Origin: Neocallimastix sp. 'constans'
Lineage: Eukaryota
Reading direction: 5' to 3'
Assembly (NCBI GenBank): GCA_050613775.1
Contig: JBODTK010000013.1
Span: forward strand, 62,001-126,000
DNA: 64,000 nucleotides
Under the pieces are notes generated by a model. It saw nothing but the letters and a program-made list of their open reading frames with translations, was not told where the DNA came from and searched no databases. How positions within the stretch are numbered: position 1 is the stretch's first letter; the number at the start of each line of letters is the position of its first letter. The translations under genes and the position numbers were made by a program. This document shows, one piece after another, positions 2,817-58,679 of this stretch.

Positions 2817-5360
2817 TGTCTAATCACTTGTATTAATAAAAAGTATAAAAATCATGGAATTATTATTTTAAAATAAAAATACATCTTATACCAAAAAGAG
2901 AATAAAAAATACTTTATACTGTTATAAATATATTATAATAAAATATTTTCTAAAAACTATTAACCCATATATAATTACTACGTGTTTATTTTAGTTTATT
3001 TGAGTATTTCTTAACATGATATTTTTTTGACAGATTAAGAGTCTCAGTCTCAACCGATTAATCCATATGAAAGCTAAGTATTTTTTTTTTAAAAATAAAA
3101 ATTTAACATTAAATAATTTTGAAATTTCTATATTTATTATTAAATATTAATTTTTTTTTTTTTATTATTATTTATATAAATATATAAATATTTATAAATT
3201 ATAGAACTAAAATAAAAGTAGAATCTTTAATATTTAAAATAATTATATAAAGAAGTACAATATCGATAAAATTGAAATTGAAAATAAACAAAAAGTCAGC
3301 TATTAGAAATAAGTTGAGGATGAAATAAAAGGTCAGCTATATTATATAAGCTGAAAATAAAGAACATAACATGTCAGCTATGATATATAAGCTGAGAAAA
3401 ATATAATAAAAAATTCAATTATATAATAAATAATTAAAATAAAGATTTTAATTAAAATGATATTATAATAATATATTAAATATGAACAATTAATGTTATA
3501 GTCATTTTCACAAAAATAGCAAAAATTTTTAAATACGCTTAATATAAATAAATTAATCCCTTTATATTATTATTCGTAATATAAAAATATACAATACTTT
3601 GTAATAAACATTAATAAAAATAATTTATTCTTAATTAAAAAGGAATAGTAACATAATCACATTCACATTATTTAATAAAAGAATCAAACTGATAGGTTTC
3701 AGTAATAATAAAATTATACTAATTCCTCCCTCAATATTAAAAAATGTATATTAATATCTTTAAATTAAATTTTATTAAATTTTTATAAGCATTATTCATT
3801 AAAAAATCTATATAAATATATTAACAATTAATTGTCACTAAAAATAGAACCAATAAAAATTAATTATAATTTACATTATTTAATTTAATAAAATTAAATC
3901 TAACTAAAGAAATAAAAAAAATATATAAAAAACAAATTAAAGAAAAGCAATAAAAAATAAATTTAGAAAATAATAAAACATAAATACTTTTAATTAAAAC
4001 AAGAAGGTAAAAATAAAAAGTAGAAAATGAGCGGAAACAATTCAAGAAGTAATTCCAGAAATCAAATCATCGAAATCCCCGGATCAGAAAGTAATTTCTT
4101 CGCTAAAGGAATCTCTTTTAATTACTCCGAGAATTTCAATCATATTACTGAATTAACCGTTGAAAGCTTCCAAGATTGGAAAACTAACGTATTGGATCTC
4201 TTAATCATCAATAATCTAAAAGAATACATTAGTTTACCAAAAGTAAAAAAATTGAGAAAGAAAGATATTAAAGAAGATTTAGATAAGTACAATAAAGATA
4301 AATTTAATAATTCTCTTGTTTACGATATTAGGACAACCCAAACAGATATCAAGAATGACATCATGGTTAAATGGATAATTAATAATAGCTTGGGAAAGAA
4401 AACCAAAGAAATAATAAAAAGGCCATAGTAAGACCGCCTTCGAAATGTGGAACTTCCTCCAAGATTCCTTTACTTTAGGAGAAGAGCATCAAAAAATGAT
4501 ATTACGAAATAAATTGAACAGATTAAAATTTACCACAGATGATGATATACATATCTTTCTTGCAACACTTCAAAATATGATCGATGAATCGGAAATTATC
4601 GATACAGACATGAGTGATAGTGTAAAGGTAGGAATTCTGAATAGGGCTTTACCTGAAAATCTAAGGTGCATAAATGTTTTCCAATTCAATAATGAATGGA
4701 TAAAATGTTGCAATTACGTAAAAAGAATAATACCATATATTCTTTTCTCAAACATCAAGGAAAGAAAACTTCAAGAAGAAAATGCAAAAAATATTTATAA
4801 TTTACAAACTGAAAACAAAAATAAACAAAATAATAAGTACCTAAAAATAAGAGGAAGAAAAAATGGAAATGTTTCCTATGTGGAAAATACGGCCACTACA
4901 AAAGGAATGTTATAAATATAAAAGAAATAAGCTCCTGAATCAAAACAATGAAAATAAATCAATGAAAATTCGAAGAAAATTTAACAAAAAATATAATAAA
5001 AGTAAAATTAATAACAAGCATTTATATTCGATAAGTAATTACAACAACTATAAAGACGATTACTTAGAAGATTTTTCTAAAGATTATAACTCTGACAATG
5101 CAATCGAAATTAATTGCTTAAAAACAATAAATAATAAAAATAACTAAAATAGTAATATACATAATAATAACTTCATAGTTTGGATTTTAGATTCAGGTGC
5201 ATCAATCAGCACTATTAATGACATAAAATTTCCTACTAACATTAAAAAATGTAAAAAAAAAATTTTACTAGCGAATGGTAAAGAAGTATTATCTGAGTTT
5301 TGCGGCGATTTTGTAAGATTCATTAACAATAACAAATTTATTTTAAAAAATGTTTATTAT
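2817..5360 (+). mobile_element. 3'-truncated Ty1/copia element (5' LTR ~2817-3032, PBS, ~1 kb leader, gag-protease)
   Basis: Putative LTR TGTC...GACA followed immediately by GATTAAGAGTCTCA (3033-3046). Gag ORFs at 4027-5147; protease motif WILDSGAS at ~5180. Confidence 0.8.
4027..5360 (+). pseudogene. gag: Frameshifted copia gag-protease
   Basis: FNYSENFN and KVGILNRALPENLR motifs are shared with the other gags in the window. Split over several ORFs and truncated after the protease. Confidence 0.85.
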
Positions 5361-5681
5361 TCAAGATATAATAATAATTTCCAATTCACTGATGTTTGTA
5401 TGATCATATTAGTCTTAAATCATGATGAAATTAATAGTGATAATGAAACGTATTCAGAAAAAGAGACAAAAGAAATTTTGCTATAAAAATTAAATAATAG
5501 GAGTATTAAAACGTAATATTAATATAAAAGAAAAATATTAAAATAATAATAATTTAATTTATACTCTTCTAAAATATTATGACTTTAATTTATAATTTTT
5601 TGTATAATCATATTAAAACATAAGTGTTATTTTATATTATAATTAAGCACTATATTTCTATTCAATTCTTACTTTTATCCA

Positions 5682-5909
5682 AAGTTAGATTTGAGGAGGA
5701 ATGTTAAAAAATATAAATTTAAAATTTTATAATTATATTAATTTAAGGAGAAATAATATATATTTTAATATATTCATGTAAAATATGTGACCAATAATAA
5801 TAATAGACCTCATATTATGTTAACTATAAATAACACAAAAATGTACATTATTATTTCATATATCAATTCTAATATTTTCATATAATAAAAGAGATTCTTA
5901 TTTCTAAAA
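5682..5909 (+). repeat. PPT plus LTR family B (LTR starts at 5702)
   Basis: AAGTTAGATTTGAGGAGGAA|TGTTAAAA with the ATATGTGACCAATAATAAT core. Right end approximate. Confidence 0.7.
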
Positions 5910-56014: not shown

Positions 56015-57285
56015 TTATGGAATTTCATTTTTTTTTTTACTTATTGTAGATAATATGATGTCAATATCATTCGTTAAAATTTTATTTCCTTTTTCTGTAA
56101 GGTGAGAGTCATTCCAAAAAAAATCATTAATACTTTTTGTTTTATTTTTCTTTATTTTTTTTTTATATTTTCTATTTTTATTTTTATTTTTTCTATTTTC
56201 ATTTTTGCTCATAACCATTTTATAGGCATTTGTACAATCTTTAAATCCAAACTTATGACAATGATCAATAATATATTCACCCCTTTTTAATGTATTATAA
56301 ATAATTATATTTGTATTAGAATGTTCATTGAAAAATTTTTTTGAGTTTATTTTTATATAATTGTTAAACATTAAAACATCTTCTTTTTTCAGTTTTTTAT
56401 AAGCTGTATTTCTAGCTGGACCTCTATATACTGGTAGAAGTTCAAATATCAATATATTTCTTGCTCCAGCATCATACAAATCTTCTACTATATTAAAAAT
56501 TCCATTAACAATACTTCTTATATCCATCTCGATATATTCTCTACGTACTTCATTTATATCATTATGTCCAATAAAAATAGCAAATAATGAATTATAACTG
56601 TTCCATTTTTGATAAAATATTTTTTTATTAATCATATTTTTAAGAAAATATGAATACTGTGTTTTTAAGTCGTGTTTACACCAATTACATTCATGAAGTC
56701 TACAAATAATTTATAGAATATTTTCAAAAGAAAAATATTTAATATATATTTAATATAAAAAAATAAATATTATATATTTTTATTATTCATATTAAATAAT
56801 ACAAATTTATGTCAATAAGTGAACCTCCTTTGGAATAATTCCATAAAGAAAAATTGTGTAAATCTCTTAATTGTAATGGCCAATTTTTTCCTCCTGAGTG
56901 ATTCTTTTTAAATTTTATTTTTAATAAAATATAATTAGTAAGAAAATATAAAATTAATATAAGTATTAAATTTATAATATTTTTACCACTCCTGTATAGG
57001 TCATATCAGTGTAATTTGTACGAACATCTGAATGGGAATCTCTTTTATTGTTTTTTTATAAATAAATAGTATAAAAAATCAAAATAAATTAAAAATTGTC
57101 AAAATAAAATAGAAAAAAAAGTACTTATTATATTACCCAAATACAATTAAATTTTCAATTTTGTCATAATTAAATGTGAATGAATTAGAGAGAAATACTT
57201 CTGATAATCTATCGTTTAAAATTTTATTTTCAATTAATTCACATTTTAGTAGAATTATAATAAAGATAAATAAAAAGATATTCAT
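56015..57285 (-). CDS. Secreted SGNH/GDSL esterase, CE16-like (exons 57285-57137, 57041-56987, ~56903-56804, ~56699-56015)
   Basis: GT-AG splicing gives a signal peptide, then NLIVFGDSHS (block I), WNYSKGG, FIGHND (block III) and FWNDSHLT (block V). Confidence 0.85.
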
Positions 57286-58679
57286 TTCTTTTTTTAAAAT
57301 AAATATTTTTTTAAATAATAAAATAGATAATAAAAGAAAATTTTTATTATATAAAAAATAAGTATTTATATATTTATTTTTGATATTATGATTTTTAGTT
57401 TTATATTTTAAAAATAGTATTAAAATCTGTGAATTGAATATAAAAGTTTAAACAAAATTTATTATATATATTATTTAAATATAGAAATTTTTAACTATAT
57501 TAATAAATAATATATTTTAATAATCCTAATATTAAATAATAATTTAAAATTAAAAATATTTAAAGCGTGGTACACTTCATATATATATAATAATTGAATT
57601 ATTTATATTTTCAATAAAAATATTTATATTGAAATTAATTATTGTTTTATAGATTTTTTTATAATATATTTCATTTGAAATACAATTTTATTATTATACT
57701 AATAATAAATTTAAATTAAATACGTAATTATAAACATATATAAATTAGAAAAATGAAATCAATTAAAACTAAAAATATGTAATATTAAATATTTTAATTT
57801 TATTATTTATTATTAAAAAAAATTATTTAATCCATTTTTTAATTACTTCTTTAGTATTTTAATGTTATTAAATAAATATTTAGTTATTTATTTATTGATA
57901 AAGATTATCTATTAATTTTATGTTTATAAATTTGAACTTTTAAAATTAAATTACATTATTATTTTTATGTATTATTATTATTTTTTATTATTTATAATAT
58001 GTATTATTATTTATTTATCATTTTAATTTGTTTTATTAATGATATATTATTCCCTATTTTTTATTTTATATTTAATTTTTTTTTCTTATTTTCTTGTCTT
58101 ATTTTTTAATTTTTATTTTTACTTCTTAATTTTATTTTCCATTTCTTTTAATGTTTTGCTTTATTTTATAACTTTTTTATTATTATTTCTGTTAGAGACA
58201 AAATCGTTACATACATTTATTTATATTATTAATTTATATCAACCAATAATTAATCTCTAAGTAAATTAAATAATGTTAACTAAGATATAAAAATATGAAA
58301 TAAATTTAATGTAAAAATATCTCTTAGACAGATATATATATCCTTATAATAAAAATTATTAATAAACATTTTATAATATTATTCATAACATAAAATACTT
58401 TGTTATATTGTTTTTATTAATACAGTGTTTGTCTTAGATTTATAAATTTGTTTTTCACAGATTAAGAGTCTCAACTCTTCAGTTGAGCTATCAATAAAGC
58501 TTAGTTGGAATAAATAAAACATAAAATCAATTTATCATTAATATCCTAACTAATAAAATTATATTTTTATTATTTTCATAATATTCATTATAGAAACAAA
58601 ACGTAATAACCAATATTAATAGACAAATATTACAAAACAATGGTGAGAATATATTGTAATAGGTCATAGTTATTTTTGA

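Follow-up and report, generated by a model that had tools for sequence, protein, structure and literature searches.

Copia elements in the window

The window, a stretch of 64,000 nucleotides with a GC content of 20%, carries six LTR retrotransposons (Table 1), all of them Ty1/Copia (Pseudoviridae) elements. The gene order gag-PR-IN-RT-RH, with RVT_2, by which Copia is recognised, is present, and every element copy in the window is broken. Three of the six have a fixed 5' LTR end. The LTRs of E40465 are 99% identical, with a 5-bp TSD and a PPT; the LTR of E58460 recurs after a PPT; and the 5' LTR of E33175 shares 91% identity with its 3' LTR and 93% with a solo LTR that has a 5-bp TSD of its own. 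For E3033, E18129 and E33552, where no partner LTR was found within the window, we infer the LTR end from an ACA/AAA terminus and the gag sequence downstream. The 5' LTRs of E18129 and E40465 terminate in AA rather than CA.

Table 1. Positions of the retrotransposon features in the window
Feature	Position	Strand	Remark
PBS of E3033	3033..3046	+	complementary to nt 27-40 of tRNA-Lys(CUU); end of the preceding LTR inferred
Box 3 (AAGYTWAGT) of E3033	3071..3079	+	
gag remnant of E3033	from about 4060	+	
Probable 5' LTR of E18129 (TGTT...AAAA)	17890..18128	+	partner LTR not found
PBS of E18129	18129..18142	+	box 2 directly 3' of PBS
Box 3 of E18129	18165..18173	+	
Broken gag-pol of E18129	19403..23022	+	gag, integrase, part of RT; several stops
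3' LTR of E33175	29216..29424	-	preceded on the minus strand by PPT 29433-29425
Box 3 of E33175	33138..33130	-	
PBS of E33175	33162..33175	-	element E33175 is a non-coding derivative
5' LTR of E33175	33176..33383	-	
3' part of probable 5' LTR of E33552	33384..33551	+	related to E18129 LTR
PBS of E33552	33552..33565	+	
Box 3 of E33552	33587..33595	+	
Solo LTR, E33175 family	37346..37556	+	5-bp TSD; fixes LTR end
5' LTR of E40465 (TGTT...AAAA)	40257..40464	+	TSD AATAC at 40252-40256
PBS of E40465	40465..40477	+	13 nt
Box 3 of E40465	40507..40515	+	
gag-PR-IN-RT-RH of E40465	41356..46092	+	Copia order; interrupted by stops
3' end of E40465	46148..46368	+	PPT 46148-46156, 3' LTR 46157-46363, TSD AATAC 46364-46368
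5' LTR of E58460 (TGTT...CACA)	58190..58459	+	
PBS of E58460	58460..58473	+	
Boxes 2 and 3 of E58460	58474..58505	+	box 2 predicted to pair with tRNA nt 8-24 or fold onto PBS; box 3 at 58497-58505
gag-PR-IN-RT-RH of E58460	59385..63883	+	three reading-frame pieces
3' end of E58460	63948..64000	+	PPT 63948-63954; 3' LTR from 63955 to window end

In a tree of RT sequences built without FunCo1 references, the elements fall into a long-branch clade of their own (72 sequences, support 1.0) with no supported sister. The only named members of this clade are from an anaerobic gut fungus. The named relatives are Orpsp1 gene models and Neocallimastix, which fits the Neocallimastigomycete host guessed in a preliminary description of this DNA. 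No Pezizomycotina names occur among the matches listed for these relatives. A seventh element (L147/L294), in another assembly, has the same LTR-PBS junction and is 59% identical in RT-RH.

A shared site next to the 5' LTR

The motif GATTAAGAGTCTC is exact at all six sites, starting at 3033, 18129, 33552, 40465 and 58460 on the plus strand and at 33175 on the minus strand (33163-33175), and the base that follows is A in five of the six elements and C in E40465. Allowing up to two mismatches, the 64-kb window holds 7 matches against 0.97 expected, a number reached by 0 of 100 shuffles. The match outside the six elements, a two-mismatch site at 51651, was rejected, having neither an LTR partner nor box 3. 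No copy of the motif follows the solo LTR or either 3' LTR (46363, 29216), which makes it internal-region sequence. Its position right after the 5' LTR, as the preliminary description had it, stands at six places, half of them with an inferred LTR end, and none of the six sites begins with TGG, the canonical PBS start. The same description took the six LTRs to be different. Most are indeed unrelated, but the LTR regions of E18129 and E33552 are 75% identical (17944-18395 vs 33384-33833), which brings the number of LTR types down from six to five.

In two eukaryote-type tRNA-Lys(CUU) genes (L152 and L004), the anticodon arm at nt 27-40 is exactly complementary to the 14-mer, as the preliminary description stated for this tRNA. 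These are presumably the same tRNA positions as those matched in Ty5. Among 1187 distinct tRNA genes of 67 isoacceptor classes, a mostly bacterial set enriched for Lys-CTT by the search patterns used, Lys-CTT is the sole class with the full 14-nt match, and the next best class matches over 9 nt. Two competing matches that had been named as grounds for abandoning the proposal were checked. In the same set, no tRNA 3' end matches over more than 1 nt, and a conventional PBS of that kind is rejected; the LTRs hold no self-primer, with 6-7 nt of complement at most.

tRNA-Lys genes and further elements were looked for in several collections, none of which yielded the host's own tRNA-Lys(CUU). There is no tRNA gene within the window. 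A GTDB scan returned 32 loci, comprising one element (L147), eight loci without a tRNA call and 23 tRNA-Lys(CTT) calls, which were pattern-selected and hence are no measure of frequency. The contaminated bin that holds L147 had 22 tRNA matches and one RT match, and no eukaryote-type Lys tRNA gene was found in it. In 2 of 64 parts of a metagenome collection, scanned with a loose pattern that returned mostly bacterial-type tRNA-Lys, the GAGA arm was present in 0 of 119 loci and no elements or gut-fungal genes were recognised. Scans of IMG/VR yielded no further elements, with gag or pol homology at 0 of 123 loci in one of them. Searches of a protein atlas gave generic Copia clusters only, the cluster look-up naming 1 of 10 proteins. 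At least half of the E40465 words were present in 14 of 24 sequencing runs, among the runs listed.

Downstream boxes

Two further conserved boxes lie 3' of the PBS. Pairing of the segment +15 to +34 with D-arm nt 8-26 beats dinucleotide shuffles in each of the seven elements (p 0.002-0.045 each), which are kin, so that combined p-values would overstate the case. Pairing of the boxes with the T-arm was rejected, there being no excess with the T-arm or the tRNA 3' half. A hairpin between the PBS tail and box 2 is predicted at -5.7 to -8.7 kcal/mol in five of the seven elements, with two pairs altered on both sides, whereas E3033 and E40465 form it weakly or not at all; the RNAalifold consensus is weak (-1.5 kcal/mol). 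When the PBS and TGAG are held constant, the bases between them speak for the tRNA duplex in two of six elements (p<0.05) and for the intramolecular hairpin in two of six. Box 2 may thus pair with the D-arm, fold back onto the PBS, or both. A T stands opposite tRNA nt 15 in five of six elements, and the pairing of box 3 is best when the tRNA has C6-U7.

Proposed priming from a cut tRNA and its alternatives

Because the site at the 5' LTR end matches the anticodon arm of a lysine tRNA, we consider it likely, with a probability of about 0.85, that these Copia elements, probably those of an anaerobic gut fungus, prime minus-strand synthesis with the host's tRNA-Lys(CUU), cleaved after nt 40. The cleaved 5' half proposed in the preliminary description is thus favoured, judged from the unique 14-nt Lys-CTT match and the lack of a 3'-end or self-priming match. 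The host tRNA would carry the arm complementary to the PBS, a nuclease cut after nt 40 would create the primer 3' end, and RT would start there, the first bases copied being the LTR terminus. More tentatively, box 2, which lies some 15-34 nt beyond the LTR, might extend the duplex into the D-arm (tRNA nt 8-24), and in free RNA it would probably fold onto the PBS until the primer opens the fold.

Instead of priming from a tRNA cut after nt 40, the site could act as a signal for packaging or structure by binding intact tRNA-Lys(CUU), the primer then being another RNA or a tRNA cut elsewhere. Priming by a cut tRNA is deduced here from sequence, Tca-type and FunCo1-type sites are themselves known mainly by sequence in the available accounts (PMC4139406, PMC5445492), and binding is still predicted for the full-length tRNA (ddG -5.6 to -15.7 kcal/mol). 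However, in 7/7 elements the match stops exactly at the LTR boundary, where a primer has to end; cofolding gives the half molecule an advantage of about 10 kcal/mol over the full tRNA; and Ty5 is described as priming off an internal cut (PMC5371799). We regard intact-tRNA binding as unlikely. Less probable again is priming from the element's own RNA, either Tf1-like or through a hairpin as in fungal GalEa, with an incidental tRNA match. The predicted hairpin and its paired changes are in its favour, but the invariant 13-mer spans the anticodon loop, mostly outside the hairpin, which two elements form weakly or not at all. Moreover, over the 400 nt upstream the post-LTR 20-mer has no complement longer than 6-7 nt, apart from two 16-nt matches. 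These arise because the PBSs of E33175 and E33552 face each other head to head; they lie 392 nt upstream, not inside either LTR. Tf1/Sushi self-priming, which requires at least 10 nt of LTR complement, was rejected on this ground. Fungal GalEa elements are described as having no PBS, a conserved hairpin site and the RT motifs KSRLVI and QTDD (PMC5445492); E58460 has KTRLV and YVDD, and membership was rejected.

The motif might also have arisen by chance or been inherited and now serve no function, given that the window copies are all broken and the elements related. Against this, 13 columns do not vary in the alignment of seven elements, whereas most pairs of LTRs reach only 35-60% when aligned, and the motif is GC-richer than its background and a perfect tRNA complement. 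The site matches, the invariant columns and the LTR divergence largely refute a functionless motif, which we consider very improbable.

Relation to known half-tRNA primers

Anticodon-arm priming is known in Ty5 and copia (PMC5371799, PMC10886601), and half-tRNA primers are in print also for iMet, Ile, Tyr, Asp and Arg. The Hemivirus-type elements described, Drosophila copia, yeast Ty5, plant Osser, Bryco and Gymco-II, use tRNA-iMet (PMC8515867, PMC6317226, PMC5371799). The window elements share with them an anticodon-arm PBS with zero spacing from the 5' LTR, which is the Hemivirus-type criterion, and probably a 3'-truncated tRNA primer. They differ in matching tRNA-Lys(CUU), and the cleavage that has been shown for Ty5 is predicted for them. 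Candida Tca elements likewise match a non-Met tRNA internally, at tRNA-Arg(UCU), in another host and lineage, and some families are credited with "extensive" complementarity (PMC4139406), which box 2 may provide here. Plant Bianca uses half tRNA-Ile, and rust-fungus Copia/Helenus elements the tRNA-Tyr, Ile, Asp and iMet anticodon loops (PMC6317226, PMC10886601). As these accounts present it, Copia lineages switch half-tRNA primers repeatedly, fungi included; Lys, the match of the window elements, is not among the anticodon-loop primers described there.

The preliminary description put forward a half-tRNA-Lys primer as possibly unreported. Its suggestion of novelty fails because Donnart et al. 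(2017, PMC5445492) had published an internal tRNA-Lys PBS, ATTAAGAGTCT, for FunCo1, a large fungal Copia clade. The window elements carry this same PBS and are likewise Copia elements, probably of a fungal host. Unlike FunCo1, which is reported almost only in Pezizomycotina (PMC5445492), a range that is a clade description and not a strict definition, they probably have a host outside that group. The available part of the FunCo1 account gives no tRNA positions, cut site or downstream boxes, and its text supplements contain no match to the PBS string (PMC5445492). No paper dealing with the primer sites of Copia in anaerobic fungi came up in our search, which was thin on subscription literature.

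Implications

What the window adds, judging by the RT tree and the named relatives, is a separate RT clade of gut-fungal elements with a host outside the reported range of FunCo1. The published internal tRNA-Lys site is thereby extended to the Copia elements of a probably early-branching fungal phylum, a result of modest importance. The site is pinned to tRNA nt 27-40 and two conserved downstream boxes are added. PBS finders restricted to tRNA 3' ends would miss such a site.

A more speculative possibility, which we hold only tentatively and think rather doubtful, is that the gut-fungal clade acquired half-tRNA-Lys(CUU) priming independently of FunCo1 and employs a three-box primer switch. Box 2 would mask the PBS in free RNA or pair with box 3, and primer binding would let it capture the D-arm, so that nearly the whole tRNA 5' half is held. 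If such a switch exists, the boxes predict a host tRNA with A at nt 15 and C6-U7. Should the clade prove unrelated to FunCo1, the same cut-tRNA primer would plainly have been adopted more than once, suggesting that hosts supply 5' tRNA-Lys(CUU) fragments that end at nt 40.

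Primer-binding site and LTR junctions

The six Copia elements E3033, E18129, E33175 (minus strand), E33552, E40465 and E58460 are each named by the start of the putative primer-binding site (PBS). The preliminary description had placed one motif at these six positions, and GATTAAGAGTCTC is confirmed as an exact match at every one. With up to two mismatches allowed, the window, which has a GC content of 20%, holds seven matches against 0.97 expected, a count reached by none of 100 shuffles. It is crowded with Copia elements, nested in one another and broken, whose gag, protease, integrase and RVT_2 domains follow the Copia order.

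A seventh element, L147 from another assembly (2.4-kb low-GC contig), combines RT-RH (59% identity to E58460), a PPT, an LTR and the identical 14-mer. Thirteen PBS columns are invariant across all seven elements, and most pairs of their LTRs align at only 35-60%. This fungal-type Copia contig (L147/L294, G001:C92:1-2400) lies inside a Methanobrevibacter (archaeal) bin, likely as contamination; eukaryote-type tRNA clusters are likewise present in many bacterial bins.

In E40465, the motif begins at the base immediately after the 5' LTR. Both of its LTRs end in AA rather than CA beside a clean 5-bp TSD, which suggests that a TG...AA terminus was used at integration. For E33175, the solo LTR with its 5-bp TSD fixes the LTR end. 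No partner LTR was found in the window for E3033, E18129 or E33552, and their sites are probable 5' junctions, judged from an ACA/AAA end and downstream gag sequence. E18129 and E33552 have related LTRs, so the motif stands behind five LTR types, and not behind a different LTR at each of six places as first proposed. It is absent after the 3' LTRs ending at 46363 and 29216 and after the solo LTR. The stretch from PBS 33552 is a chimera or nested remnant, since its LTRs do not match and gag is reduced to a short piece.

Features of the window
Feature	Position	Strand	Remarks
E40465 LTRs	40257-40464, 46157-46363	+	99% identical; TSD AATAC; PPT; element complete
E58460 5' LTR	58190-58459	+	second copy from 63955, behind PPT
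E33175 LTR		-	91% identical to 3' LTR 29424-29216, 93% to solo LTR
E18129 probable LTR	17890-18128		end likewise AA
E18129 5' leader, tandem array	18502-18910		104-nt unit, 3.8 copies
Chimera or nested remnant	33552-35960		RT 34164-35669, then LTR from about 35768, unlike LTR before PBS
Non-coding derivative family	29216-33383		-	
Non-coding derivative family	about 1417-2800 with 7753-8499		
Related LTRs of derivative family	about 5700-5950, 40130-40260		
Open frame, 1408 aa	11651-15877	+	cysteine-rich repeats, hydrophobic C-terminus
Host gene, Mannosyl_trans3	25196-26692	+	domain match
Host gene, Stealth-family protein	47895-50459	+	CR1 and two CR2 stretches
Host gene, GT2 glycosyltransferase	52721-53488	-	domain match
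Host gene, GDSL lipase	56015-56710	-	weak match

The derivative family (at least two copies and a solo LTR) has an LTR, PBS, boxes and a leader akin to that of E58460, lacks gag-pol matches inside, and is interrupted by other Copia elements. The 1408-aa frame, without a match in Pfam or PDB, presumably resembles anaerobic-fungal cellulosome scaffoldins.

Proposed priming by tRNA-Lys(CUU)

As the preliminary description had stated, the motif is the complement of the tRNA-Lys(CUU) anticodon arm: that of the 14-mer equals nt 27-40 of the eukaryote-type genes L152 and L004, fetched for comparison. The set compared held 1187 distinct tRNA genes of 67 classes, drawn from all fetched loci; it was mostly bacterial, enriched for Lys-CTT by the search patterns and not the host's. 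Only Lys-CTT gave the 14-nt match in it, the next best being 9 nt, and matches to tRNA 3' ends never exceeded 1 nt. Self-priming is rejected, with complementarity of 6-7 nt at most; two 16-nt self-complement matches come from E33175 and E33552, whose PBSs lie head to head. A tRNA gene search of the window returned none, the host tRNA-Lys(CUU) was not found, and the GAGA arm occurred in 0 of 119 metagenome loci (2 of 64 parts scanned).

The likely mechanism, to which we assign a probability of roughly 85%, is that host tRNA-Lys(CUU) would be cleaved after nt 40 and anneal to the PBS through nt 27-40, probably with the D-arm too, whereupon RT would extend this primer directly into the end of the LTR. 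Of the original proposal of a cleaved 5' half, the sequence shows the geometry; the host tRNA, its cut and its priming we infer from Ty5 and copia, precedents for cut-tRNA priming in the available text of PMC5371799 and PMC10886601.

Two further conserved boxes lie downstream of the PBS. Predicted pairing of the first, box 2 (+15 to +34), with tRNA nt 8-26 beats dinucleotide shuffles in all seven elements (p 0.002-0.045 each), which are kin, so that a combined p is overstated; with the T-arm or tRNA 3' half, no pairing of this segment was found. The same segment is predicted to fold back on the PBS tail in five of seven elements (-5.7 to -8.7 kcal/mol), with two pairs changed on both sides. 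With the PBS and TGAG fixed, the intervening bases favour the tRNA duplex in two and the hairpin in two of the six elements other than E3033, which has no TGAG; both predicted structures may be real. Box 3 (AAGYTWAGT) lies downstream of all six window PBSs and that of L147, with only two other occurrences in the window. Its predicted pairing with tRNA nt 1-13 is best with L004 (p<0.05 in 6/7, against 2/7 with L152), and its alternative pairing with box 2 is strong only in E58460 and E33175.

Relationships of the elements

Among the matches listed, RT-RH relatives at 50-71% identity were unnamed metagenome proteins and Orpsp1 gene models, beyond which came single-domain matches at about 41% or below; most were unnamed, and no Pezizomycotina names appeared. 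The gag matches include one Neocallimastix protein. An anaerobic gut fungus is therefore the likely host. A FastTree analysis of 326 RT-RH stretches (446 columns; from 380 stored proteins, those lacking domain coverage omitted) placed the elements within a clade of 45 members (0.999), whose sister clade has 27; the joint 72-member clade (1.0) has no supported sister, and each subclade contains an Orpsp1 model.

The proposed mode of working is that of Hemivirus-type priming. Half-tRNA primers are described, in the portions available of each source, for plants (iMet and Ile; PMC6317226), rust fungi (Tyr, Ile, Asp and iMet; PMC10886601) and Candida (Arg, some with extensive match; PMC4139406). 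For primer sites of anaerobic-fungal Copia, nothing was found in literature with thin coverage of subscription journals. The initial suggestion that the primer might be unreported does not hold: the accessible text on FunCo1, the fungal Copia clade of Donnart et al. 2017, gives the same PBS (PMC5445492). That text reports FunCo1 almost only from Pezizomycotina, and the host of the present elements lies outside this range.
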